From contig JABGPZ010000069.1 of NCBI GenBank assembly GCA_018644725.1, positions 84,238 through 148,237 on the forward strand: a stretch of DNA of 64,000 nucleotides, in the 5' to 3' direction. Source of the stretch: Phycisphaerales bacterium (GTDB taxonomy: Bacteria > Planctomycetota > Phycisphaerae > SM23-33). A program made the position numbers and the translations under genes. A model generated the notes under the pieces. That model made no database searches, had not been told where the DNA came from, and worked only from the letters and a program-made list of their open reading frames with translations. This document shows, piece by piece, positions 2,331-29,356 of the stretch (its first letter is position 1; every line of letters starts with the position of its first letter).

Positions 2331-3563
2331 ATGAGAATGCAACACGATGGACGGCGCGGACACTCCAATTTGCCCAAGATTCTCTTTGGTGCGGCCGGGG
2401 TGCTGATGGTGATTGCACTGGTGATTATCATGACGAGCGATGATAAATCGACCGAGCAACCTGGCCCCAAACCCGGCGAACCCACCAAGACCGACCCCAA
2501 GGCCGGCACAAAAACAGGCGCAAAGACCGGGACCCAAACCGGGACCAAGACCGGGGTAAAAACCGGCACCAAGACTGGCATTCGACCGGTCCCGCAGACG
2601 CCCAAGGCGCTTGAGGCCGCAATGAACAAGCTGGTCGGTCCCAGTCCGATCACCACGCCCACCGACGACAAGGCCACGGCGATCAAGAGCTATGTCGAAG
2701 GGATGAGGCTGTATAAAAACGCGGGCAGTTTTCTCAAAGCGCGGACGCTGCTCAATAAAGCCTATCGTGCGGGGCTTCGTGGCGGCGTGCTTTCGACGAC
2801 CGACCTGAATACCTGTCGCACGGCACTGTTGGACCTGTCGGCCAAAACGGTTCTGCATCGCACCGCGGCGTACAACCCAGAAGATCCCTATATTGTCGGC
2901 CATCGCTGGGCACCGGGTGAGTTGCTGAATTCCACGCGGAACCCCGCGACTCGCATGGTCACTCGTGAGGGCATTATCGCCAAGTGTGATTTGTGTACGG
3001 GGACGAAAATTGTCCCGTGGTACAATGGCCTCGCCAGCGCGACGCAATTCCGTGCGGGGGACTACTACAAGTTGCTCATCGGCCCGTTCCATATGGTGGT
3101 CTACCGTAGCCAGTGTGTCGCGGATATCTATTTGCAGGACTTGCTGGTCAAGCGGATTCGCGTCGCCGTCGGCAAAGCCGACACGCCCACGCCGCTGGGG
3201 GAATTCCGTCTTCCCAGTTGGGGCGACAAGAGTGCGAAGAGCCCCTATACGCCGCCCGTGACAGCCGGTCGCGGGAGCGGACAGATCTATCCCGGCGAGC
3301 CAGGATACCCGCTCGGGGCGAAAGGCTACTATGTCAAGATTGAGGGTATCAAAGAAAAGGGCACGGACATTCCCGTTTCGCGCGGCTATGCCATTCACGG
3401 CACGAGCGACCCGTCGAGCATCGGCACGCCTGCGAGCTATGGCTGCATTCGTGTTGGCGCGGCCGACATGGAATTCCTCTATTACGCGCTGATCGGCTAT
3501 GCCGACCCGAACGACCCCACGGTCAACTGGAAACGCTTCTCGACGATCTCCATCCAGAAATAG
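2331..3563 (+). CDS. L,D-transpeptidase (YkuD domain) with N-terminal TM anchor and (K/T)TG repeat linker
   Basis: C-terminal catalytic block YAIHGTSDPSSIGTPASYGCIRV has the HG(S/T)…SxGCIR signature of L,D-transpeptidases. The N-terminus has one TM helix then TKTGAKTGTQTGTKTGVKTGTKTG repeats. The ORF track starts at an upstream TTG (2313); ATG 2331 follows an AAAGGA RBS. Confidence 0.75.
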   Translation: MRMQHDGRRGHSNLPKILFGAAGVLMVIALVIIMTSDDKSTEQPGPKPGEPTKTDPKAGTKTGAKTGTQTGTKTGVKTGTKTGIRPVPQTPKALEAAMNKLVGPSPITTPTDDKATAIKSYVEGMRLYKNAGSFLKARTLLNKAYRAGLRGGVLSTTDLNTCRTALLDLSAKTVLHRTAAYNPEDPYIVGHRWAPGELLNSTRNPATRMVTREGIIAKCDLCTGTKIVPWYNGLASATQFRAGDYYKLLIGPFHMVVYRSQCVADIYLQDLLVKRIRVAVGKADTPTPLGEFRLPSWGDKSAKSPYTPPVTAGRGSGQIYPGEPGYPLGAKGYYVKIEGIKEKGTDIPVSRGYAIHGTSDPSSIGTPASYGCIRVGAADMEFLYYALIGYADPNDPTVNWKRFSTISIQK

Positions 3564-3683
3564 CGAGACCACGCGAAGAGCAATTCAAATTGCGATCATT
3601 CAAACGCCCGGCGAGTTTTCCTCGTCGGGTGTTTTTGTGTAAGTTTGGATTGTCGCTTGTTCTGTGGGGTCGGGAGGGATAGA

Positions 3684-5099
3684 ATGGACTCCATGACTGA
3701 ACCACGAACAGAACGAGACCTGCTGGGCGAGAAATCGATTCCCGCCGATGCACTGTGGGGGATTCACACTCTCCGCGCGGTGGAAAATTTTCCGCTGTCT
3801 GGCCGGAGCGTGCATCCCGCGCTCATCGCGGCCTATGGGCAGGTCAAGCGCGCGTGCGCCCAGGCGAACTTCGAGCTGGGCTACCTCACCGACGAGCAGT
3901 TCTCCGCGCTGGGGATCGCCTGTGACGAGATGACCGCCGGTGCGTTGAACGATTCGATTCGCGTCGACGCGCTCCAGGGCGGGGCGGGCACGAGTCTGAA
4001 CATGAACGTTAACGAGGTGCTCGCCAATCGCGCACTGACCCACATGGGTCGCGCGCCGGGCGATTATGACGCGCTCGATCCGCTCGACCATGTCAACCTG
4101 CATCAGTCCACCAACGATACTTTTCCCACGGCGATGCGCGTGGCGGCGATGCAACTCCTCGCCGCGCTCGAGCCCGCCGTCGTCGCGCTGCAGGAAGCGT
4201 TCCAAGCCAAGGAGCGCGAATTCGCCCACGTCGTTCGCGTTGCGCGGACCCAGCTCCAGGACGCGGTACTCACCACGCTTGGCCGGCAGATGGGTGCGTA
4301 CGCCGAAGCGTTCAACCGCGACCGCTGGCGGATCTACAAATGCAACGAGCGGCTGCGCGTGATCAACCTCGGCGGCACGGCCATTGGTACCGGCCTCGAC
4401 GCGCCGCGCCAATACATTTTCGCCGCGACCGAACGGCTGCGCGAAGCGACGGGCCTGGGCCTGGCGCGGGGCGAAAACCTCATCGACGCGACGCAGAACT
4501 TTGACGTGTTCGTCGAGGTCAGCGGGATCCTCAAATCGCTCGCCGCGTCGCTGTGTAAAATTGCGACCGATCTGCGGTTGCTTGCATCGGGTCCGTCGGC
4601 GGGCTTCGGGGAGATTCGTCTTCCGGCCGTCCAGCCTGGCAGCAGCATCATGCCCGGCAAGGTCAACCCCGTGATTCCCGAAGCCGTCACCCAGGCCGCG
4701 CTGGCGACGATGGCCAACGACACCGCCATCACGTCCGCCGCCGCGATGGGGAATTTGGAACTCAACGCGTTCGGGCCGCTGGTCGCCGACAAACTGCTCG
4801 AATCGATTTCGCTCCTGACGGCCGCGTGCGAACTGTTCACGACCCGCTGCGTCACCGGGATCGAGGCCGACGAAGACCGCTGCCGCGAGTTGGCGGAATC
4901 GTCCACGGCGATTCTCACCGCGCTCGTCCAGCATATCGGCTATCAGGCCGCCAGCGATCTGGCCAAACAGGCGGCAGAAACCGCCAAGCCGATCCGCACG
5001 CTGGCCATCGACAGCGGGCTGGTGGACGAGGCGACATTTGATCAATTGACTTCCCCCGAGGCCGTCACGGCACTGGGGTTTCGGACCAAGAAAGACTAG
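3684..5099 (+). CDS. aspA: Aspartate ammonia-lyase (class II fumarase/aspartase superfamily)
   Basis: GSSIMPGKVNP signature and QGGAGTSLNMNVNEVLAN (aspartase-type rather than the fumarase GSGTQ form). N-terminus ERDLLGEKSIPADALWGIHTLRAVENF resembles E. coli AspA. ATG 3684 is preceded by GGGAGGG. Confidence 0.8.
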   Translation: MDSMTEPRTERDLLGEKSIPADALWGIHTLRAVENFPLSGRSVHPALIAAYGQVKRACAQANFELGYLTDEQFSALGIACDEMTAGALNDSIRVDALQGGAGTSLNMNVNEVLANRALTHMGRAPGDYDALDPLDHVNLHQSTNDTFPTAMRVAAMQLLAALEPAVVALQEAFQAKEREFAHVVRVARTQLQDAVLTTLGRQMGAYAEAFNRDRWRIYKCNERLRVINLGGTAIGTGLDAPRQYIFAATERLREATGLGLARGENLIDATQNFDVFVEVSGILKSLAASLCKIATDLRLLASGPSAGFGEIRLPAVQPGSSIMPGKVNPVIPEAVTQAALATMANDTAITSAAAMGNLELNAFGPLVADKLLESISLLTAACELFTTRCVTGIEADEDRCRELAESSTAILTALVQHIGYQAASDLAKQAAETAKPIRTLAIDSGLVDEATFDQLTSPEAVTALGFRTKKD

Positions 5100-5102
5100 A
5101 CG

Positions 5103-6329
5103 ATGTTAAAAACCCCCAAAGGATTCCGCCTGCACATCGGCCTGTTTGGCCGCCGCAATGTGGGAAAAAGCTCGCTGCTGAACGCGATCACGCACCAGGA
5201 CGTATCGATTGTGTCGGACACGGCCGGGACGACGACCGACCCCGTCGAAAAGCCGATGGAGCTTCTGCCGCTCGGGCCGGTGCTGTTTATCGATACCGCC
5301 GGCGTGGATGATGTCGGTGCGCTCGGTCAGCAGCGCGTGGAGAAAACCCGTCAGGCGTTCGACCGCACCGACGTGGGGCTGATCCTCGTCGCCGCCGGCG
5401 AGTGGGGCGAGTTTGAAGACGCGCTCCTTGCCGAGTTGCAAGGCCGCGATGTGCCCGTCGTTGTCGTGTTCAACAAGTCCGACCTCGCCGAGCCGCACGC
5501 GGACCTGGTCCAGCGGCTGACGCATGACGACATTCCGCACCTCTACACCAACGCCGCCACGGGCGAGGGCGTGGGCGATGTCCGCGAGACGCTGGTGGCG
5601 ATTGCGCCGGACGACTTCATTCGCCCGGCCGCCATTGTCGGCGACTTGCTGCCGCCGGGGGGCTGTGCCGTGCTGGTGGTGCCCATCGACAAAGAAGCGC
5701 CCAAGGGCCGGCTGATTCTTCCGCAGGTCCAGACCATCCGCGATTTGCTCGACAGCGACAGCTATTGCATGGTCGTCAAGGAACGCGAGTTGCGCGACGC
5801 GCTGGACCGCCTCGTCGATCCGCCGGAGCTGGTGATTACCGATTCGCAGGCGTTCCTCAAGGTCGCCGCCGACACGCCGCCAGCCGTGCCGTTGACGAGT
5901 TTTTCCGTCCTGTTTGCACGCGCCAAGGGCAACCTCGCCGAGTTCGTGCGCGGCGCGATGGCGATTGATTCGCTCCAAAGCGGCGACGACGTACTTGTCG
6001 CCGAGGCGTGTAGCCACCACCCCATTGGCGAGGACATCGGCCGGGTGAAAATCCCGCGCTGGCTTCGTCAATATGTCGGCGGTGAGCTGAATTTCAAAAC
6101 CGTTCAGGGCCACGATTTTCCCGACGACCTCGAAAAATACAAGCTCGTGATCCACTGTGGCGCGTGCATGTGGAACCGCCGCGAAGTCCTCAGTCGCCAG
6201 ATGCATTGCCGCAACGCGGGCGTGCCGATGACGAATTATGGCCTGGCGATTGCCTATTCCCTCGGCATCTTCGAGCGCGCGCTCGGGCCGTTCCCCGAAG
6301 CGCTGGAGCTGTACCGCTCGCTGAAATAA
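5103..6329 (+). CDS. hydF: [FeFe]-hydrogenase maturation GTPase HydF homologue (orphan)
   Basis: N-terminal GTPase with GRRNVGKSSLLNA…SIVSD.AGTTTDPV…DTAGVDD, close to Thermotoga HydF. The C-terminal domain has CSH…(47 aa)…HCGAC, the HydF FeS-binding CxHx46-53HCxxC motif. Start is 1 nt after the aspA stop. Confidence 0.65.
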   Translation: MLKTPKGFRLHIGLFGRRNVGKSSLLNAITHQDVSIVSDTAGTTTDPVEKPMELLPLGPVLFIDTAGVDDVGALGQQRVEKTRQAFDRTDVGLILVAAGEWGEFEDALLAELQGRDVPVVVVFNKSDLAEPHADLVQRLTHDDIPHLYTNAATGEGVGDVRETLVAIAPDDFIRPAAIVGDLLPPGGCAVLVVPIDKEAPKGRLILPQVQTIRDLLDSDSYCMVVKERELRDALDRLVDPPELVITDSQAFLKVAADTPPAVPLTSFSVLFARAKGNLAEFVRGAMAIDSLQSGDDVLVAEACSHHPIGEDIGRVKIPRWLRQYVGGELNFKTVQGHDFPDDLEKYKLVIHCGACMWNRREVLSRQMHCRNAGVPMTNYGLAIAYSLGIFERALGPFPEALELYRSLK

Positions 6330-7140: not shown

Positions 7141-7905
7141 ATGACTGCATCTACCGACAACCCGCCGCTTCGCGCGATTCTGTTTGACCTCGGCGATACG
7201 CTGCTCGACTTCGGGCCGATCAGCCACGACGAGATGTTTCGTCTCGGCGCGAAAGAGGCGTACGAGTATCTTCTCGAGCTCGGCCACCGCTTGCCATCGT
7301 GGCGGCGCTATCACTGGCGCCATTGGCTGGCGATTCGCTGGCACGTGATTTTGGCCGTACTGCAACGGCGGGAGTTTCATTCCTTGCCCGTGCTGGTGCG
7401 CTGTTGCAAGCGCCTGGGCATTGAGCTCTCGCCCGAAGAACAGCTCGAATTGTGCTGGCGATTCTATCTGCCGCTGCGGAACATTGCGACCGTCGAACCG
7501 GGCCTCGCGGACATGCTCGTGGATCTTCAGGCGCGCGGGCTGACAATCTCCATCGTCTCCAATACGTTCGTGCCGGGGGAAATCCTCGACCGTCATCTGC
7601 GCGAAGAGGGCCTGCTCGAGCATCTGCCGCTGCGGGTCTATTCGTGCGACGTGGGCTATCGCAAACCGCACATCGAGATTTATCGGCGCGCGCTGGAAAC
7701 CGTCGGGACAAAACCCGAAGAAACGATGTTCATCGGTGACACGCCCAAGGCCGACGTGATTGGCCCGGGGAAGCTGGGGATGATCACGGTCCTCAAAGAC
7801 CCCACCACCCAGCGCAAAGGCCGCCAGCACGCGGACTATTGCCTGACGAAAATTATGGACCTGCCAACGATCCTTGAACACTATCAACTCGGAGGCGCGG
7901 ACTGA
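7141..7905 (+). CDS. HAD-superfamily hydrolase
   Basis: Motif I ILFDLGDTLLDF, motif II IVSNT and motif IV FIGDTPKADV. The upstream start at 7096 in the ORF track lies inside the terminator T-run, so ATG 7141 is preferred. Stop overlaps the murD start by 1 nt. Confidence 0.7.
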   Translation: MTASTDNPPLRAILFDLGDTLLDFGPISHDEMFRLGAKEAYEYLLELGHRLPSWRRYHWRHWLAIRWHVILAVLQRREFHSLPVLVRCCKRLGIELSPEEQLELCWRFYLPLRNIATVEPGLADMLVDLQARGLTISIVSNTFVPGEILDRHLREEGLLEHLPLRVYSCDVGYRKPHIEIYRRALETVGTKPEETMFIGDTPKADVIGPGKLGMITVLKDPTTQRKGRQHADYCLTKIMDLPTILEHYQLGGAD

Positions 7906-9206
7906 TGCAAACCACAGATGACCTGTTGCGCGGAATGCGAGTGACTGTTGTGGGCCTTGGCCGCTTTGGCGGCGGAGTGGGCGCGGCGAATTTCCTCGCA
8001 TCGCGCGGCGCGAAGGTGACCGTGTCCGATCAGGCCGACGAAGAGATTCTTTCCGAGTCGGTGGCGCAGTTGACGGATGATTCGATTTCACTCGCCCTCG
8101 GCGGCCATCGCGAATGCGACTTTTTCGACACCGAGTTGCTGGTGGTCAATCCGGCGTTTCCCAAGACCCATCCGCTGCTCGTGGAGGCCACGCGTCGGGG
8201 CGTGCCGCGTACCAGCGAGATCAATTTGTTCCTCGAACGGTGTCCCGCCGACATGGTGGGCATCACTGGCAGCGTCGGAAAAAGTACGACGGTGTCGATG
8301 TGTGGCGAGGTGCTTTCGCGGCGCTATCGCACGCACGTCGGCGGCAACATTGGCCGCTCGCTTCTGGGCGATCTCGAGCAGATCGGCCCGGAGGATATCG
8401 TGGTGCTGGAGCTGTCGAGTTTTCAGTTGGAGGACATTCCGCTGGTGGGTGTGTCGCCGCGAGTGGGGCTGGTGACGAACCTGATTCCCAACCATCTCGA
8501 CCGCCACGGCACGATGGAGGCCTATGCGAGCGCCAAGCAGAACCTGTTGCGGTATCGCGCCCAGCGGGGCGTGACGTTGCTGAATGCGGCCGCGCCGGAA
8601 TTGGCTGATTGGCCCGCCGTAGCGGGTGGTCGCGTGGAGTGGTACAACCTGCCCGACGATGAACCGTTCGATCTGCGCGTGCCCGGTGACCATAATCAGG
8701 CCAACGCACAGGCGGCCTGGGCCGTCGGTCGGGCGCTCGGCATCGAACGTCACGACGCCGAAGACGCGCTGAAGAATTTCCATGGCCTCGCGCATCGGCT
8801 GGAGCTGGTGGCGGACCATGATGGCGTGCAATATTTCAACGATTCCAAGTGTACCACGCCACGCGGCGCCGAGGTCGCGCTGACGGCGTTTGAGCCCGAG
8901 ACGGCCGTGATTTTGCTCGGCGGCTATGACAAGGGAGCGACGTGGGACGAACTTGGCCGAGAGGTGTCCAAGCGCGCCAAACGGGCCGTGTGCTTCGGCC
9001 AGACCGGACCTGCCATCGCCGAGGCAATCCGCACTGCCGGCATGGAACCGTTCACCGCCGACACCCTCGACGAAGCATTCGCTCTCGCCCAGCGCGAAGC
9101 CGCCGACGGCGATACCGTCCTCCTCAGCCCCGCCTGCGCGAGCTGGGACCAGTTCACAAACTACGAAGAACGCGGCGAACGATTCACCCAACTCGCCAAG
9201 GGATAA
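7905..9206 (+). CDS. murD: UDP-N-acetylmuramoyl-L-alanine--D-glutamate ligase
   Basis: VTVVGLGRFGGG Rossmann N-terminus, Mur ligase P-loop GITGSVGKSTT, and a conserved Mur ligase C-terminal domain. Confidence 0.85.
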   Translation: MQTTDDLLRGMRVTVVGLGRFGGGVGAANFLASRGAKVTVSDQADEEILSESVAQLTDDSISLALGGHRECDFFDTELLVVNPAFPKTHPLLVEATRRGVPRTSEINLFLERCPADMVGITGSVGKSTTVSMCGEVLSRRYRTHVGGNIGRSLLGDLEQIGPEDIVVLELSSFQLEDIPLVGVSPRVGLVTNLIPNHLDRHGTMEAYASAKQNLLRYRAQRGVTLLNAAAPELADWPAVAGGRVEWYNLPDDEPFDLRVPGDHNQANAQAAWAVGRALGIERHDAEDALKNFHGLAHRLELVADHDGVQYFNDSKCTTPRGAEVALTAFEPETAVILLGGYDKGATWDELGREVSKRAKRAVCFGQTGPAIAEAIRTAGMEPFTADTLDEAFALAQREAADGDTVLLSPACASWDQFTNYEERGERFTQLAKG

Positions 9207-9255
9207 TGACGGGTAACAAGTAGTTCGCCTTACATGACTAATGGGAGAATTGGCA

Positions 9256-10113
9256 ATGGAACAGCAAGAACTTGGAATACTTGACCTCTTGAAAATCAGG
9301 GGGCTTGATGTTACCGCAAAAGCAAAAATGCTTCGGCATCAAGACAAGCGCTTCGATGTAGATCAGCTTATTCGCGATGGCTGGCTTGAGGTGTATCAAG
9401 GCCATCAGGCAAAACCTCGCTTGAAGGGGTGTGAATATTTTTTGGCCTTCAAGGGTGATGGTGGAACCCGTGCGAGATTTCTTGGCGTGTATCGTATTTT
9501 GAAAGAACGAAAAAGTACCCGCAAGGACATGCCCAAAGGATGTCCACTGGCGAGATTTACTAATCCATGGGAATATTATTATGAGCATGAGTTGGACAAG
9601 CGTTTCGATGACCTGAGGGGCCGAATTGTAATTGAATGGGGTAAGGGGACACTTGCGTGGGCTCAGAACTTAAGAAACAAACCGATACTTGAAATTTACC
9701 CGCCTGGCCGCGTTCTTGCGCCATTTACGGATTACATGGATTTCATTTTATCGTACCAAGAGCTTCAAGACCTTATGAAGAATCCTGGGGCTCACCGCGA
9801 TTGGAAATCGAGCCTTTCGGCGGTGGCCGGGGTCTATTTGATTTGGTGTGAATCCACCGGTCAGCAATACATTGGCTCAGCTTATGGTTCGGATGGTATA
9901 TGGGGCCGATGGGAGCAGTATGCGAAGAAGGCTCACGGCGGGAATAAGCTGCTCCGGGAACTACTTAAGAAGGATCCTGATGCGGCCGAAACGTTCCGTT
10001 TTTCAATTCTGCAGGTGTTGCCAAAAACGACGAAAAATTCAGAAGTGATCCGCTGGGAAACCCAATACAAACGGAAGCTTGGCACAATTGCGATCGGATT
10101 GAACGCTAATTGA
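9256..10113 (+). CDS. Unknown N-terminal domain (~190 aa) fused to a C-terminal GIY-YIG nuclease domain; on a low-GC island
   Basis: C-terminus GVYLIWCESTGQQYIGSAYGSDGIWGRWEQY…NKLLRELLKK…IRWETQYKRKLG carries the GIY…YIG, catalytic Arg, and Glu motifs. GGGAGA RBS sits 9 nt before ATG 9256. Local GC is about 40-45% versus about 60% in flanks, with AT-rich codon usage. Confidence 0.7.
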   Translation: MEQQELGILDLLKIRGLDVTAKAKMLRHQDKRFDVDQLIRDGWLEVYQGHQAKPRLKGCEYFLAFKGDGGTRARFLGVYRILKERKSTRKDMPKGCPLARFTNPWEYYYEHELDKRFDDLRGRIVIEWGKGTLAWAQNLRNKPILEIYPPGRVLAPFTDYMDFILSYQELQDLMKNPGAHRDWKSSLSAVAGVYLIWCESTGQQYIGSAYGSDGIWGRWEQYAKKAHGGNKLLRELLKKDPDAAETFRFSILQVLPKTTKNSEVIRWETQYKRKLGTIAIGLNAN

Positions 10114-10126
10114 AAGGAGCATACTC

Positions 10127-10420
10127 ATGGGGCAATCCTATACAGCTAAATGTAAGAAGTGTGGCGAAGAGTTTGAGTGCTGTGAAGGCGATAGTTCCAT
10201 GGCCCGATTGATCAAATGCGATATGTGTGGCAAGGATTGTTGGTGCCGAAACCCTTTAAGGAAAGGGCCAGCTATCGAGATGCTAGATTTGTCCGAGAAG
10301 CCTCCAGCGCAATGTGAATGCGGCGGGAAGTTTATACTCGGAGCCCCGTCGAGATGCCCGAAATGCCGAAGCACCGAGATAGGTGTGGCTCTTGGTTACG
10401 GCGTGACCATGTATGATTGA
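10127..10420 (+). CDS. Cys-rich multi-zinc-ribbon small protein (97 aa), partner of the GIY-YIG gene
   Basis: Six Cys pairs: CKKC, CC, CDMC, CWC, CEC and CPKC. Starts 13 nt after the upstream stop with GGAG RBS. Same low-GC composition. Confidence 0.55.
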   Translation: MGQSYTAKCKKCGEEFECCEGDSSMARLIKCDMCGKDCWCRNPLRKGPAIEMLDLSEKPPAQCECGGKFILGAPSRCPKCRSTEIGVALGYGVTMYD

Positions 10421-10672
10421 CGGGCCCATGCGGATTGGGTGTTGCCCGCCGTTGGTGATCTGATTACATTCAAATTGAAGGGTGCCGTGGCCTGTAGAGC
10501 GGTACTCCGCGAGGCAGCCACGAAGATCGTATTGCATTTCAAAATTGCGAAACAGACAACGGAATACGAAGCACTATCGGCCGGGGCTTGCCTTAGTCTT
10601 TCCGCTCGCAAGCTCGCTCCAAGAACCTAAGGCCCCGGCCAATAGTGTGGGTGGTCAGCGTCGGGGGGATTT

Positions 10673-10708
10673 GTAGGGGCGGGGCTTGCCCCGCCCAGGG
10701 TGATTCAA
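10673..10708. repeat. REP-like GC hairpin element GTAGGGGCGGGGC-TT-GCCCCGCCCAGGGTGAT
   Basis: 9-10 bp perfect inverted repeat. Its 3' half (ttgccccgcccagggtgat, 19/19) is identical to unit 3 of the 412-549 tandem repeat, and both share the GTAGGG 5' box. Lies between the island and the stop of the LolA-like gene. Confidence 0.55.
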
Positions 10709-10748
10709 CGGGGCGAGGAAAAACCTATCCCCGATTTTTCCAAAATAG

Positions 10749-11654
10749 CTACGGTTTGGGTGTTGGTTTTGCAGCCGGTGTGGGTTTGGCGAGGGGTTCG
10801 CGGGTCTCGGTATAGCCGGCGGGCTTTTTGAGTTTGAACAGGGTATCGGCGAGCTTGTCGGCCTTCTTGATGTTGGAAAACGTCGCCGTCGTATAGGCCT
10901 TGTTCTTGTCGCGAGTCTTGACCTTCACGGGCAGAAACGTCTTGGTGTCGATCCAGAGTTCCATGCGGGTGAACTGGATGGACTCGGCATTTTCTGCGCG
11001 CGGCACGAGGCGCAAATAGCCGGAATTCTTCGGGTCGCTGCTGCGGGGTGCGCGCGTGGTGACCTCAAAAAGCTTGATGACGTCGTCGGCCTTTTGGCCG
11101 AAGGGCAACGGGAAGGGCCCCTTGCCGATTTTCAGCACGTCGGCCTCTTGCCCGAGGCGGACGACTTCGATGCGTGTGACGGTTTTCTGGCGGTGCTTGG
11201 CGATGTGCAGCCAGTGGCCGTCGAAAATGTAGTCGAGCTTGCTTTCGGCGACTTTGCCCTTGGCGAGCTGGAGGGTCTCAAAGCGGATCGCAAACCGCGC
11301 GGGGACTTTGAGCGTGCGGTTCTGGAAGGCGACGCTGCCGGTGCGGGTTTCCTCGTCGCCAGTGAGGCGGTCGATGACGTTGTAGTTCACGTCGGCGGTG
11401 AGGACGGGATAGTTTTTCCCTGCGAGCTCGAGCGCCTGGAGCATTTTCATCGCCAGGGGGTCGAACTTGGTCGCGGGCACGGCGGCGGCGGTGGGTAGGG
11501 GCGGCGAGGGCGGCCGAAGCAGCGGATGGGTCGGCCCGACGGCGGCGGCTTCGGGGCAGCAGGGCGCTTTGGGCGGTTCGGGGTTCGCGGCAGGTTGGGC
11601 CATGGCCAGCGAGGCCAGCAGCACGACGGTCAGGATGGTACGAAGGTGGGTCAT
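10749..11654 (-). CDS. Secreted LolA-like (outer-membrane lipoprotein carrier-like) beta-barrel domain protein with Pro-rich termini
   Basis: Signal peptide MTHLRTILTVVLLASLAMA, then a Pro-rich linker, a ~200-aa β-rich core, and a C-terminal PAAKPTPKP tail. Start overlaps the larE stop by 4 nt. Confidence 0.4.
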   Translation of the reverse strand: MTHLRTILTVVLLASLAMAQPAANPEPPKAPCCPEAAAVGPTHPLLRPPSPPLPTAAAVPATKFDPLAMKMLQALELAGKNYPVLTADVNYNVIDRLTGDEETRTGSVAFQNRTLKVPARFAIRFETLQLAKGKVAESKLDYIFDGHWLHIAKHRQKTVTRIEVVRLGQEADVLKIGKGPFPLPFGQKADDVIKLFEVTTRAPRSSDPKNSGYLRLVPRAENAESIQFTRMELWIDTKTFLPVKVKTRDKNKAYTTATFSNIKKADKLADTLFKLKKPAGYTETREPLAKPTPAAKPTPKP

Positions 11655-24709: not shown

Positions 24710-26108
24710 TGCCTGCTCCTTGTGCGGTCATTTCAGCGAAAATGGCGAAGACCATCGCGCCCAGAATCAGTCCGCGTAGCCATCCGGGCAGGCGGGCGAA
24801 TGTTTCTTCCATCGTTTTGTTTCGCGAGTACCAGTGGACCCCGAGCGTTACGCCCGTGAACAGCAGAACCTGCAGAAGGTGGTGCGTGGGGAGCGTGCTG
24901 GCACAAGAGCTTTGGCCGGTCATGCTGGCGATCATCGTTCCCGCCGCGTGGAAACTTCGCGCACGGAAGAACACCCACGCAAAACAGACGGCGATAAATG
25001 TCAGCGCGCACAGCAGGATCTGCATGGGATAGCTCGCCCAGAGTCGTTGGGGCGCGAACCATTTTCGCAGGAGCTGTTCGAGGACGAGATAGCTCCCGTG
25101 CAGGCCGCCCCAGACGATAAACGTCCAGCTCGCGCCATGCCACAGCCCGCCCAGAAGCATCGTCAGCGCGAGGTTGCGGTAGGTCTTGAGTTTGCTGCAG
25201 CGACTGCCGCCGAGGGGGATGTAGAGATAGTCCCGCAGCCAGGTCGACAGCGACAGGTGCCAGCGTCGCCAGAAGTCGGAAAACCCGATCGCCGCGTAGG
25301 GGAAGTGAAAGTTGTCGGGCAGGATGAAGCCCAGACACAGCGCCGCGCCGATGGCGATGGTGGAATAGCCCGCGAAGTCGCAGAAGATCTGCACCGAAAA
25401 CGCCAGCGTCCCCGCCCACGCGTCGACGAAGGAGTGGGCCGTTTGGAAGTCGTAGACCGATTCGACGATCGGCGCGAGTGTGTCGGCGATGGCGGTTTTG
25501 CAGAACAGGCCGATGATCATCAGCGTCAGACCCCATTGAAATTGCTTGCGCGAGGCGCGCTTGGGCTCATCGCATTGGGGCAGGAAGTCCACCGCGCGCA
25601 CAATCGGCCCGGCGACGAGCTGGGGAAAGAAGGTGACGTACAGGGCGTAGTCGAGGAAGCAGTGCCACGGCGTGGCTTTGCGGCGGTAAATGTCGATGGT
25701 GTAGGAAAGCGTCTGGAAGGTGTAAAACGAAATCCCCACCGGCAGGACGATGCTCATCGTCGCGGGGTGCCAGTCGAGCCCGAGGCTCTGGGAGAGCGCG
25801 ACCAGATTGTTGACGAAGAAGTTGGCGTATTTGAAGTACCCCAGCATGCCGAGGTTAATCCCCAGGCTCGCCCACAGGTAGAGCCGGCGGCGGCGTAGGC
25901 TGTCGCTGGTGTGGATGGCGCGGGCGAGATGCCAGTCCGCAAGGGTCGAAATCCAGAGCAAAATCACGAACGGGGGATTCCATGCGGCGTAAAACAGGTA
26001 GCTGATCAGGAGCAGGAACGATTTGCGCAGCGTCCAGCTTTTCATGGACCGCGAGACCACCATCACGGCGGCAAAGAAGATCAGGAAGGTGAATGAGTTG
26101 AAAAGCAT
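24684..26108 (-). CDS. MBOAT-family membrane-bound O-acyltransferase (AlgI/DltB-like)
   Basis: 474-aa polytopic protein with conserved MBOAT blocks (…WRRWHLSLSTWLRDYLYIPLGG…, an invariant His in a TM region, and C-terminal LWHG). Confidence 0.85.
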   Translation of the reverse strand: MLFNSFTFLIFFAAVMVVSRSMKSWTLRKSFLLLISYLFYAAWNPPFVILLWISTLADWHLARAIHTSDSLRRRRLYLWASLGINLGMLGYFKYANFFVNNLVALSQSLGLDWHPATMSIVLPVGISFYTFQTLSYTIDIYRRKATPWHCFLDYALYVTFFPQLVAGPIVRAVDFLPQCDEPKRASRKQFQWGLTLMIIGLFCKTAIADTLAPIVESVYDFQTAHSFVDAWAGTLAFSVQIFCDFAGYSTIAIGAALCLGFILPDNFHFPYAAIGFSDFWRRWHLSLSTWLRDYLYIPLGGSRCSKLKTYRNLALTMLLGGLWHGASWTFIVWGGLHGSYLVLEQLLRKWFAPQRLWASYPMQILLCALTFIAVCFAWVFFRARSFHAAGTMIASMTGQSSCASTLPTHHLLQVLLFTGVTLGVHWYSRNKTMEETFARLPGWLRGLILGAMVFAIFAEMTAQGAGNAFLYFQF

Positions 26109-26236
26109 GGAGTGGTCCTCAGGGTTCTAATTCACGGAGTGTAAATGATTTCAGGAGAGCTTTCAACCGATTTTCTCACGTTTGACCATCGAGGGGACAG
26201 AGGATTTGCCAGAGGGAATGACCGCCCTGCGAGTCA

Positions 26237-26292
26237 TCAGTATAGCGATTTCCGCCGGAATGGATTCACCCTTCTCACCGTCATTTTCGGAG
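26237..26292 (-). promoter_or_regulatory. Conserved 55-bp upstream element, copy 2 (130-184 nt upstream of MBOAT start)
   Basis: Minus strand reads CTCCGAAAATGACGGTGAGAAGGGTGAATCCATTCCGGCGGAAATCGCTATACTG. Its palindrome TTCCG-G-CGGAA carries a compensatory change relative to copy 1. The uORF is MTVRRVNPFRRKSLY. It sits exactly 2600 bp from copy 1. Confidence 0.5.
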
Positions 26293-26307
26293 GTCGATCC
26301 TGATTCC

Positions 26308-26333
26308 TTCGGTTGGTACTACTGTATAGAAGG
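26308..26333 (-). promoter_or_regulatory. Shared motif B (CTTCTATAYAGTAGTACCAACC), copy upstream of MBOAT operon
   Basis: 24/26 nt identical to 26870-26896. Contains TATACA/TATATA -10-like hexamers. Confidence 0.35.
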
Positions 26334-26858
26334 CTGCGGAACGGCTTGGGGTTTGTGCCAGCCCTCGCGCAGGCCCTGTTGGAGAAAGGCTTCGAAGCGG
26401 GTGTGGAGAGCGGGGTTGGCCTTTTTGAGTTCGATGACCGACTTTCCCAACGGAAGCTCACCGACTCCGAACTCAAAGTAGATGTGGCTGAGGATCGATT
26501 CCTGCTTGGCTTTCGGCAGGCGGTCGAACGCGGCGTTGAACGTCGTGGGTTTGCCTTTGAAGATGATCTTCATAAGGTCTGCGCAAAAAAGTTCAGCAGG
26601 TCCGCCGTCGACTTCCTCACAGATTGACAGAAAGTCGTAGGTGACATTGGGGTCGTCGGATTCAATCACGACCTCGGTCAGATAGGATCGTCCTTCCAGG
26701 TCCGAAGACAAGCAACGGAATGCTGCGCCCAGGAGTTTTCCATCGGTAGGGCGATGTGCGGCCGGGGCGGTGGGGGGTGCGGGCTTGTTCTTCCCGCCGC
26801 AGCCAGCGAGGATTACAGCCGAAATTAACAGCGCGGCGAATGTGATTGTGCGTTTCAT
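26319..26858 (-). CDS. Hypothetical lipoprotein (179 aa)
   Basis: Signal/lipobox MKRTITFAALLISAVILAGC. AAGGGAG RBS sits 6 nt upstream of ATG 26858. Motif B lies immediately upstream of the RBS. Confidence 0.5.
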   Translation of the reverse strand: MKRTITFAALLISAVILAGCGGKNKPAPPTAPAAHRPTDGKLLGAAFRCLSSDLEGRSYLTEVVIESDDPNVTYDFLSICEEVDGGPAELFCADLMKIIFKGKPTTFNAAFDRLPKAKQESILSHIYFEFGVGELPLGKSVIELKKANPALHTRFEAFLQQGLREGWHKPQAVPQPSIQ

Positions 26859-26869
26859 GTCAAACTCCC

Positions 26870-26896
26870 TTTGGTTGGTACTACTATATAGAAGCA
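26870..26896 (-). promoter_or_regulatory. Shared motif B copy, putative promoter of the lipoprotein gene
   Basis: GCTTCTATATAGTAGTACCAACC followed by AAAGGGAG and ATG within about 15 nt. Spacing fits a -10 followed by a short leader. Confidence 0.35.
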
Positions 26897-27053
26897 AGCG
26901 GGGGGAATGCAAGGGGGAGGGTTTGAAAAAGGGGATTCGGCGCGGGATGGTCCGGCGAGACGGCCAAAATCGCGTGAAAACGGTATTTTTTGCTGTTTTT
27001 AGGGTTAGTGGGGGTTGTTGCGATAAAAAAAGTGAAAAAAAAACGAAAGAGAA

Positions 27054-27081
27054 TTGACTTCATTGGGGATGTCTGTATAAT
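27054..27081 (+). promoter_or_regulatory. Consensus sigma70-type promoter with A-tract UP element for the tRNA-Thr-tuf operon
   Basis: TTGACT-16 nt-TATAAT, preceded by gcgataaaaaaagtgaaaaaaaaacgaaagagaa, about 130 nt upstream of the tRNA. Confidence 0.6.
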
Positions 27082-27210
27082 TTTGCGTCCTGTCATCGGA
27101 ATGGTGTGGCTGTAGCCAGATCGCCGAAAACGGGTAACATCCTAGAAAAAAAGGGCCTTGCCGACGCATCGGAATAGCTATTTCGGTAGTTTGCATGGCT
27201 TTGAATGACC

Positions 27211-27282
<72 letters not shown>

Positions 27283-27411
27283 TTCCGACGATATCGTATC
27301 GTCGGGCCGAACCCAAAGGCGGTGAGTGGCGTGTGCTTCTTACCTGGCGATTGAATGATCGAAAAGCCTTCTATGGGAGCAATATCAAACGCTTCTTTTA
27401 AGGAGAACAAA

Positions 27412-28614
27412 ATGGCTAAGGAAGTATTCGAACGCACCAAGCCGCACATGAACGTTGGCACGATTGGCCACGTTGACCACGGTAAAACCACCCTCACCTG
27501 CGCGATCACGAGCGTCTGCGAAGCCCAAGGCTGGTCGAAGGCCAAGAGCTACGACGACATCGCCAAGGCTTCGGAAAGCCAAGGCCGCCGCGACGCAAGC
27601 AAGATTGTGACCATCGCATCGGCACACGTCGAGTACGAGTCGGCCAACCGCCACTACGCTCACGTTGACTGCCCTGGTCACGCTGACTATGTCAAGAACA
27701 TGATCACCGGTGCCGCCCAAATGGACGGCGCGATCCTCGTAGTGTCGGCCTTTGACGGCCCGATGCCCCAGACCCGCGAACACGTCCTCTTGGCCCGCCA
27801 AGTGAACGTGCCGAACCTGGTTGTCTTCCTCAACAAGTGCGACCTCGTCGAAGACGAAGAACTGCTTGAACTGGTTGACATGGAAGTTCGCGAACTTCTC
27901 AGCATGTACGACTTCGACGGCGACAACGCTCCCGTGATCCAAGGTTCGGCCACCGCCGCAATCTCCGATCCCGGTGGCGACGGTGCCAAGTCGATCATCG
28001 AGCTGCTCGACGCGCTTGACGCGCTTCCCCAGCCCCCCCGTGAAACCGACAAGCCTTTCTTGATGCCCATCGAAGACGTCTTCTCGATCAAGGGTCGTGG
28101 TACCGTTGGTACCGGCCGTATCGAACGTGGCGTTGTCAAGGTCGGCGACAAGATCGAAATCATCGGTCTCGGCGAAACCCGCGAAACCACCATTACCGGC
28201 GTTGAAATGTTCAACAAGGAAATGAACGAAGGCGAAGCGGGCGACAACTGTGGTTGCCTCCTGCGTGGCATCGACAAAGAAGAACTCGGCCGCGGCATGG
28301 TCCTCTGCAAGCCCGGCTCGGTGACCCCGCACTCCAAGTGCGAAGGCGAAGTCTACGTCCTGACCAAGGAAGAAGGCGGTCGTCACAGCCCGTTCTTCAC
28401 CGGCTACCGCCCCCAGTTCTACTTCCGGACCACCGACGTGACCGGCACCGTGACGCTGCCCGAAGGCACCGAAATGTGCATGCCCGGCGATAACGTCCAG
28501 ATGACGATTGAACTGCTGAACACCAAGATTGCTATGGAAGATGGCCTGCGCTTCGCGATTCGCGAAGGTGGCCGTACCGTGGCTTCGGGTGTTGTGACCA
28601 AGATTCTCGAGTAG
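27412..28614 (+). CDS. tuf: Elongation factor Tu
   Basis: [28 protein letters not shown]… and [22 protein letters not shown]; the track start at 27355 is an upstream extension. Confidence 0.95.
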
Positions 28615-28675
28615 TCTTGGACCTAAAGATCCCCAGGGCTTTCTGACAAAGTCCGATACCACGAGGTAAATCCAC

Positions 28676-28843
28676 ATGGCAAAGTCAAAAGCCCGCGAAT
28701 ACGTTTGGCTCCAGTGCAAAGAGTGCAAGGACCTGAATTACCGCACGAACGTCCGCGTCCAAGGCGGAGTTCCCAAGCTGGAATTCAACAAGTTCTGCCC
28801 GCGTGAACGTAAAGTCACCACGCACAAGATCAAACGTAAATAG
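28676..28843 (+). CDS. rpmG: 50S ribosomal protein L33 (55 aa; below ORF-track cutoff)
   Basis: Manual translation gives MAKSKAREYVWLQCKECKDLNYRTNVRVQGGVPKLEFNKFCPRERKVTTHKIKRK, with a CxxC…CxxR zinc ribbon. GAGGT RBS. The tuf-rpmG-tRNA-Trp-secE-nusG order is conserved. Confidence 0.85.
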   Translation: MAKSKAREYVWLQCKECKDLNYRTNVRVQGGVPKLEFNKFCPRERKVTTHKIKRK

Positions 28844-28888: not shown

Positions 28889-28961
<73 letters not shown>

Positions 28962-29356
28962 CTGAACTCGCTTCGGCGAGTCTCAACACAACATAGCCGG
29001 GTCGGCGACGCGATTGGCGCGCGTCTTGAACCGATCCGGGGTGCATACGCACCGATTGTATTCCAAACAGAATGTCCCCCGTCGTCGCCAACGATGCGGT
29101 GGCAGACGATTGGAATCCAGCCGGAACTCGTTACTTCGGGCGAAGACTCGCCTGAATGTCACGGGTTTATTTTCGTATCTGTCTCGATACGGGCTCGCCA
29201 ATGCCCATCCGAGACACTGCGAATACGACAGATGCTGTAGATTGAGCATTGCATTGTAATGATGCCAACTCTCTTGCTTGCAAGGAGTTGTGCGAAAAAC
29301 AATGTACATCCTTGATCGTTCGGGACATTCGAAACCCCCTATGGAAAGGGACCACG

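Follow-up and report, generated by a model that had tools for sequence, protein, structure and literature searches.

A Uzume defence gene with a predicted modified-base sensor and a zinc-ribbon neighbour, next to murD in a planctomycete

Introduction

Uzume has been described as a single-gene anti-phage system, which reviews attribute to Millman et al. 2022 and whose mechanism they give as unknown. The preprint of Millman et al. 2022 does not mention Uzume, and our literature search found neither a mechanism nor a phage specificity for it. [quoted passage not shown] Other type IV enzymes join a sensor of the PUA superfamily to a nuclease, as in the EVE-HNH proteins VcaM4I and TspA15I, the SRA-type enzymes PvuRts1I and AbaSI, and the YTH/EVE-McrB fusions. 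Type IV reader domains occur with different nucleases (PMC7641849, PMC6765204); in particular, the predicted type IV enzymes listed by Bell et al. 2020 include fusions of EVE domains to nucleases of the PD-(D/E)XK, HNH, PLD and GIY-YIG types (PMC7641849).

Here we analysed a 64-kb stretch of planctomycete DNA (the window, meaning this whole stretch), in which a sequence-only reading had singled out two genes as a candidate uncharacterised defence or selfish module. We found that the locus is a known defence gene and not a new system. What is new is a concrete proposal of how Uzume may work, namely type IV restriction by means of a CMoRE-like or PUA-like sensor, and, as a minor lead, a sporadic zinc-ribbon neighbour of uzuA.

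Results

A low-GC gene pair follows murD

Downstream of murD lie two co-oriented, tightly spaced genes on the plus strand (9241/9256-10113 and 10127-10420, 13 nt apart; Table 1), as the sequence-only reading had it, and a domain scan agreed with both of the flanks that it had named, the LolA-like match being weak. The drop in GC content that it had noticed is also real: 9207-10420 is the lowest-GC 1200-bp window within the 64 kb (z about -3.9), although the segment, put at 40-45% GC earlier, measured 48.3%, compared to 58.9% for the whole window. GC3 is lower in both insert genes as well, at 0.49 in uzuA and 0.53 in the zinc-ribbon gene as against 0.74-0.82 in six flanking genes. Further genes in the flanks encode a PP-loop ATPase, an M54-like peptidase, a HAD hydrolase and an FMN reductase. 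In the flanking ORFs scanned (6.4-13.5 kb) we found no match to an integrase, transposase or DNA methyltransferase, in agreement with what had been noted from the letters, and no defence gene apart from one marginal QueC match; the uzuA of the window stands alone among housekeeping genes, outside any defence island. The two genes of the pair are probably co-transcribed.

Table 1. Features of the uzuA locus, in window coordinates (L001 is the relative GCA_029935835.1)
Feature	Position	Strand	Details
murD (upstream flank)	7905-9206		Mur ligase domains (Pfam)
uzuA (Uzume defence gene)	9256-10113	+	285 aa; PADLOC UzuA PDLC03973
UzuA N-terminal domain (aa 1-168), predicted modified-base sensor	9256-9759	+	invariant residues in family alignment
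UzuA C-terminal domain (about aa 191-285), GIY-YIG nuclease	9826-10110	+	Y194 (GVY), Y205-G207 (YIG), R218, N230, E268, N283
Spacer between uzuA and zinc-ribbon gene	10114-10126	+	13 nt; Shine-Dalgarno-like AAGGAG at 10114-10119; gap identical in length in L001
Small double zinc-ribbon protein, DUF8255-like	10127-10420	+	97 aa, 12 Cys; orthologue in L001
Long stem-loop, inverted repeat I3	10572-10647	.	arms of 16 nt with 94% complementarity; forms in the predicted fold of either strand
GC-rich hairpin GGGGCGGGGC-TT-GCCCCGCCC	10676-10697	.	sole site in 64 kb with up to 3 mismatches
Weak LolA-like gene	10749-11654	-	domain scan of flanks

The insert is older than had been thought. Its acquisition had been called recent; in L001, however, uzuA is 93% identical and occupies the same place after murD, a context shared with this relative only. 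Between the two genomes murD has a dS of about 0.85 and uzuA one of about 0.99, so that the insert predates the split of both lineages and has been inherited vertically since. Despite that divergence, the GC3 of the uzuA insert is near 0.47-0.53 in both genomes, and a foreign origin is plausible. Every contig with an identical MurD or LolA-like protein also carries the insert, and we found no empty murD/LolA-like junction among these contigs. The ends of the insert are not marked by direct repeats, a tRNA or a recombinase; the short direct repeats D1-D3 around it look like chance and were dismissed, and Rfam, tRNA and promoter scans of the surroundings returned nothing relevant. Purifying selection on uzuA is strong, with a dN/dS of 0.041 against its L001 orthologue, compared to 0.15 for murD.

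The convergent zinc-ribbon and LolA-like genes are separated by a spacer of 328 bp with a host-like GC content of 57%. It holds a hairpin, 256 nt past the end of the zinc-ribbon gene's coding sequence, which had been taken for a REP-like element closing the island. The hairpin exists but is single-copy within the 64-kb window, and because it also lies in host-like sequence the window does not support the REP-like label; a REP element, of which many dispersed copies are expected, was rejected. No T-run follows the hairpin on either strand, and a scan for terminator-like sites passed over it. The long stem-loop nearer to the zinc-ribbon gene, for which the window holds no convincing further copy, is probably part of a terminator region in host sequence outside the insert. 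Within this one window, the spacer with both hairpins looks like a terminator region and not like a REP family.

The large protein belongs to the UzuA family

The product of the first gene is almost certainly a member of the UzuA family. It matched the PADLOC UzuA model PDLC03973 over nearly its full length (E 2.5e-89, 297.5 bits; residues 11-290 of the 290-aa form against positions 3-278 of the 278 in the profile) as well as a second UzuA model, PDLC03974 (E 7.7e-51), and at E <= 1 the PADLOC scan returned for it only the UzuA models and a weak ThsB match. UzuA alone defines the Uzume system in PADLOC. The label uncharacterised must therefore be dropped for this protein, a full-length member of a catalogued system, while the suggestion of a defence gene of foreign composition appears sound, judging from this membership together with the low GC and GC3. 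The 290-aa form would begin at an in-frame ATG at 9241. The true start is likely ATG 9256, since relatives are typically 284 aa long and align from 'MxxxLGILDLL'; GGGAG at 9243-9247, eight bases ahead of this ATG, is a likely ribosome-binding site.

UzuA is widespread. A word-indexed protein search gave 363 homologues, typically of 284 aa, and 578 uzuA loci were confirmed among species-representative genomes; the best 80 of these 578 are spread over Planctomycetota, Acidobacteriota, Chloroflexota, Proteobacteria, Firmicutes and Bacteroidota, among other phyla. The GC content of uzuA was below that of its surroundings in 60 of 67 loci, as expected of a horizontally moving gene. Relatives occur in 420 plasmid records, among them copies in Bacillus thuringiensis about 41% identical to the UzuA of the window, and in only 3 of 50,697 phage records, so the family is not one found only in phage genomes. 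In a hand-picked sample, some homologues adjoin a type I methyltransferase or the PADLOC candidate systems PDC-S01 and PDC-S61.

UzuA joins an intact GIY-YIG domain to a predicted modified-base sensor

The C-terminal GIY-YIG domain read from the letters was recovered by Pfam (PF01541, E 2e-6 over residues 197-281 of the 290-aa form, exceeding the gathering score), and its fold is closest to that of I-TevI. The residues given for this domain in Table 1 are invariant across 25 homologues with 48-93% identity to the UzuA of the window. We take them to include the catalytic positions, on general knowledge of GIY-YIG nucleases and on the match of the family profile to I-TevI; with these positions invariant, the UzuA nuclease should be active. 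In particular, the Arg and Glu whose loss would mark a dead nuclease are present as R218 and E268 and are invariant in the family alignment.

The N-terminal domain, in contrast to the nuclease domain, had been described as matching nothing. This holds for the roughly 170 residues themselves, which gave nothing meaningful in Pfam or PDB sequences, and not for the protein as a whole, which falls in PADLOC UzuA. Nor did PADLOC, Pfam or PDB sequences provide a sequence-level link of the domain to CMoRE, PUA, EVE, YTH or ASCH. The assignment of the domain as a sensor is drawn from predicted structure. An AlphaFold2 model of full UzuA was confident (pLDDT 88), and fold comparison with its N-terminal half returned a long series of PUA-like readers of modified bases. 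To split the domains, residues 1-168 were modelled separately (pLDDT 86.5, pTM 0.80). Foldseek placed CMoRE first (E 2.6e-3, probability 0.99); its PUA-like matches were non-significant (E 0.4-1). In the fold list of the N-terminal domain, CMoRE was followed by ASCH (5.7), YTH (5.0-5.6) and EVE (5.3) domains and, lower down, by McrB N-terminal domains (4.5; 3.8 for one solved with m5C DNA) and THYN1 on 5mC DNA (4.4). The tool does not report the aligned target residues; since the list contains no other GIY-YIG protein, the match should fall on the non-nuclease part of CMoRE, that is, on its sensing domain. These models support the architecture first proposed, a sensor-like domain with a GIY-YIG effector, and we regard the N-terminal domain as a predicted sensor of modified bases. 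YTH and ASCH domains are often readers of RNA and not of DNA, which counts against a DNA sensor.

Residues invariant in the N-terminal domain include R27, H28, D30, W43, Y47, Q48, Q51, Y79, Y109, R123, W128, W135 and Q137; the aromatic and polar ones among them (W43, Y47, Y79, Y109, W128, W135, R27, H28 and D30) could form a base-binding site. A profile search with the domain found 1075 cluster representatives at E <= 1e-3, mostly UzuA or fragments of it. In one protein (P0350) a UzuA-type N-terminal domain (E 6e-30) is joined to an HNH nuclease (PF13391, E 3e-13; PADLOC HNH and REase_II models), and in three others (P0287, P0336 and P0375) it is joined to other sequences. That the domain is found with both HNH and GIY-YIG nucleases, P0350 being the single clearest case, fits the modularity of type IV readers.

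The zinc-ribbon gene is a rare neighbour of uzuA

The small ORF is a real gene, to judge from its divergence: the L001 orthologue has 98 aa, is 64% identical and gives a dN/dS of 0.144. Its product, which had been read as Cys-rich with multiple zinc ribbons, is indeed rich in Cys; the six Cys pairs counted in the letters did not hold up, as only 7 of the 12 Cys are invariant among relatives (C9, C12, C31, C34, C63, C77 and C80), with C65 present in three of four aligned sequences. This pattern suggests two Cys4 zinc ribbons.

Among 80 other species (the best 80 of the 578 loci), a related gene lies directly 3' of uzuA in only two, both metagenome-assembled genomes (MAGs). The Tepidisphaerales MAG (L027) has a ribbon ORF of 109 aa after an 11-nt gap, and the Bacteroidales MAG (L074) one of 94 aa, 32% identical, after a 4-nt gap. 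Two Desulfosporosinus loci encode, 45 nt 3' of uzuA, a protein of 206 aa that has a CxxC near its N terminus; the ribbon profile does not recognise it. Given that the surveyed loci hold no other convincing ribbon copy elsewhere, the adjacency of ribbon and uzuA is not random, though it is rare. A metagenome scan with a degenerate ribbon pattern gave a single match (L087), which we discarded as an archaeal protein resembling a release factor, with a CxxC ribbon inserted in it and uzuA absent.

A profile built from the four ribbon proteins found 143 relatives, mostly labelled PF26783 (DUF8255); the precomputed annotation gives the window protein itself the PF26783 label too, which was 'faint' in two contig look-ups. 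Seven look-ups of DUF8255-like genes, made irrespective of uzuA, found none adjoining uzuA, and no UzuA-like domain was present in the genes upstream of other DUF8255 genes. Instead, DUF8255-like genes follow a conserved protein of about 480 aa together with either Nmad2 and Nmad3 or a 188-aa protein, or lie beside a phage-type integrase or among metabolic and housekeeping genes. The search for homologous gene pairs thus showed that the partner is not conserved beside the effector, being confined to the lineage of the window and 2 of 80 other species, and the proposal of a two-gene system was not upheld, with relatives of the ribbon gene in unrelated contexts. As the ribbon is rare beside uzuA and occurs in several neighbourhoods, the gene appears to be a facultative accessory and not a core component of Uzume; an obligate toxin-antitoxin pair was rejected on the same lack of conservation.

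Discussion

On balance we lean, by a modest degree, towards UzuA being a modification-dependent (type IV) restriction endonuclease with the domains of CMoRE in reverse order. When phage DNA enters the cell, the N-terminal domain of about 165 aa would bind a modified base in it, leaving cleavage to the C-terminal GIY-YIG domain. Host DNA would be spared for want of the modification, and UzuA would on that account need no partner methyltransferase. E. coli PD-T4-3/CMoRE follows the same logic with its two domains in the opposite order. In this reading UzuA would depend on modified DNA, read a particular base and defend the cell directly, not by abortive infection. The zinc-ribbon protein would be an optional accessory and not a required subunit. 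The type IV reading is supported by the flanks, which hold neither a methyltransferase nor a clear defence gene; by the distribution of UzuA, which is rare in phages, common on plasmids and mostly of lower GC than its flanks; and by the dN/dS of uzuA, 0.04, lower than that of murD. Against it counts that it gives the conserved, tightly linked zinc-ribbon gene no role.

That gene is the reason to consider a two-component variant, in which UzuA works together with the zinc-ribbon protein (for example as a DNA-binding subunit for targeting, as an inhibitor or antitoxin that keeps the nuclease in check, or as a sensor of the trigger) and the pair, not UzuA alone, is the functional unit in the lineage of the window. 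The small gene follows uzuA by 13 nt with its own Shine-Dalgarno sequence, the pair has been kept at the same site in L001 with the small gene under constraint (dN/dS 0.14), related ORFs sit 4-11 nt 3' of uzuA in the Tepidisphaerales and Bacteroidales MAGs, and the ribbon profile finds no other convincing copy elsewhere in the 81 loci. Uzume, however, was described as a single-gene system; 78 of the 80 loci from other species have no ribbon gene, none of the seven independently chosen DUF8255-like genes adjoins uzuA, and the small protein has no PADLOC or PHROG match. We therefore consider this variant rather unlikely. UzuA could also be an abortive-infection nuclease, whose N-terminal domain, instead of reading target DNA, senses a cue of infection (such as RNA with a modification, a nucleotide or a protein of the phage) and sets off non-specific cleavage by the GIY-YIG domain, with death or arrest of the cell as the outcome. 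Many sensor-nuclease defence proteins work in this way, and a mechanism given as unknown in reviews leaves room for it; the sequence-only reading likewise proposed toxin/immunity or abortive infection. The closest structural match of the sensor, however, is a direct-acting type IV enzyme, which is not allosterically activated by 5hmC DNA or 5hm-dCTP (PMC12923530). In addition, the joining of the sensor to an HNH nuclease matches the type IV pattern and most members of the UzuA family have no antitoxin-like neighbour, and we hold abortive infection to be unlikely.

A role outside defence, as a selfish free-standing GIY-YIG homing endonuclease or a UvrC-like or Slx1-like housekeeping repair nuclease, is very improbable. 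It could draw on the nuclease fold, nearest to I-TevI, on a weak match to the NCBIfam model grpIintron_endo (E 5.5e-5, 23 bits against a cut-off of 56) and on plasmid records that annotate some UzuA homologues as 'excinuclease ABC subunit C'. We rejected the homing endonuclease because the domain order is reversed, there is no NUMOD, HTH or zinc-finger DNA-binding tail, and relatives are nearly absent from the phage records; intron or intein context, flanking repeats and a nearby tRNA are lacking as well. The patchy, low-GC, plasmid-rich distribution is unlike that of a housekeeping repair gene, and the family sits in a curated defence library.

If the type IV reading is true, Uzume would join the type IV restriction enzymes, about a thousand cluster representatives would be added to the sensing fold of CMoRE as a family linked to PUA-like readers, and Uzume enzymes would be candidate tools for detecting modified bases. 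A more speculative and improbable extension is that in a few scattered lineages (the planctomycete clade of the window, the Tepidisphaerales MAG and the Bacteroidales MAG) Uzume recruited the double zinc ribbon as a true second subunit that gates or targets the nuclease. In that case modified-DNA systems would have the ribbon family in common as an accessory, since it also closes an operon with the 'nucleotide-modification-associated' genes Nmad2/Nmad3; this would define a two-gene subtype of Uzume and a new adaptor family.

Compared with known systems, the small protein has four Cys pairs in common with DUF8255 (PF26783), whose typical member has 128-130 aa and stands alone, whereas the window protein has 97 aa and lies 3' of uzuA. 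UzuA shares the fold and motifs of its catalytic domain with homing endonucleases of the I-TevI type. It differs from them in its domain order, which is the reverse of the usual one as had been pointed out, in having neither a DNA-binding tail nor an intron context, and in belonging to a family almost absent from phages. In agreement with described Uzume, it is full-length on the UzuA profile, has the same two-domain layout of about 284 aa and, like most members, is low in GC relative to its flanks; it differs in its planctomycete host, in standing alone among housekeeping genes outside a defence island, and in the 3' zinc-ribbon gene, which most members do not have. CMoRE carries an N-terminal GIY-YIG domain followed by a C-terminal sensor, an arrangement opposite to that of UzuA (PMC12923530). 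The motifs differ as well, with GVYLI...YIGSA and no third Tyr in UzuA compared to 'GIYxY-YIG' in CMoRE, no PD-T4-3 model was among the PADLOC matches at E <= 1, and 9u75 was not returned by profile searches of PDB sequences. Judged by the predicted structure, UzuA looks like the two-module design of CMoRE in reverse.

Conservation of uzuA and a possible divergent allele

We compared the murD-uzuA segment of the window (7905-10113) with its counterpart (3062-5250) in L001, a relative that carries uzuA and the zinc-ribbon gene at the same place after murD. The UzuA proteins are 93% identical with a dN/dS of 0.04, and the MurD proteins are 83% identical with a dN/dS of 0.15. The acquired uzuA is thus better conserved than the adjoining housekeeping gene. 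Although dS is about 1, the GC3 of uzuA is still near 0.47-0.49 in this comparison.

A metagenomic contig, L086, matches the window exactly across murD and into uzuA for ~29 codons, as far as 9342; from 9343 to the contig end it diverges abruptly, with 75 mismatches, and its UzuA shares 69% identity with that of the window over aa 1-91. The window allele was also found in the same sample (as L082), and the source assembly has 2.3x coverage. Either a recombinant uzuA allele co-exists with that of the window at this site, or L086 is an assembly chimera.

Features of the window and compared loci
Feature	Locus	Coordinates
Possible divergent uzuA allele (ENA ERZ508549 NODE_56814)	L086	equivalent to window 7884-9528
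14-nt direct repeat, CGGATTGGGTGTTG / CGGTTTGGGTGTTG	window	10431-10444 and 10752-10765
tRNA-Thr	window	27211-27282
419-aa ORF	window	27355-28614
tRNA-Trp	window	28889-28962
GIY-YIG-like motif gene, next downstream of uzuA	L025	2707-3228
	L047	6857-7735
	L077	6993-7448
Operon with terminal DUF8255-like zinc ribbon	L088	983-4291
	L089	2008-4285
	L090	103-2449

Elsewhere in the window, a 14-nt direct repeat, probably a chance match, lies on both sides of the intergenic region that separates the zinc-ribbon and LolA-like genes. The second-lowest GC stretches (~52-53%, within 26000-28700) flank two tRNA genes and a 419-aa ORF.

Related genes and domains in other contexts

The DUF8255-like zinc ribbon also closes a recurring operon (L088, L089 and L090), in which a gene for a ~480-aa protein (52% identity between loci) is followed by Nmad2 and Nmad3 genes or by one for a 188-aa protein, and then by the ribbon gene. 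No protein of this operon at the three loci matched a PADLOC model; the L088 copy adjoins a HEPN/nucleotidyltransferase pair and ATPase_2 genes.

At several uzuA loci, among them L025, L047 and L077, the next downstream gene carries GIY-YIG-like motifs, and these may be tandem GIY-YIG genes. The L077 example reads 'SGVYIYV...YIGKA', and L077 gave a weak match to a third PADLOC UzuA model (E 7e-4).

The UzuA-type N-terminal domain was found within other architectures in P0287, P0336 and P0375, with P0336 bearing an N-terminal CxxC ribbon besides it. P0350 (324 aa) fuses this domain (aa 6-162) with a nuclease of a type other than GIY-YIG, an HNH endonuclease (aa 226-278).
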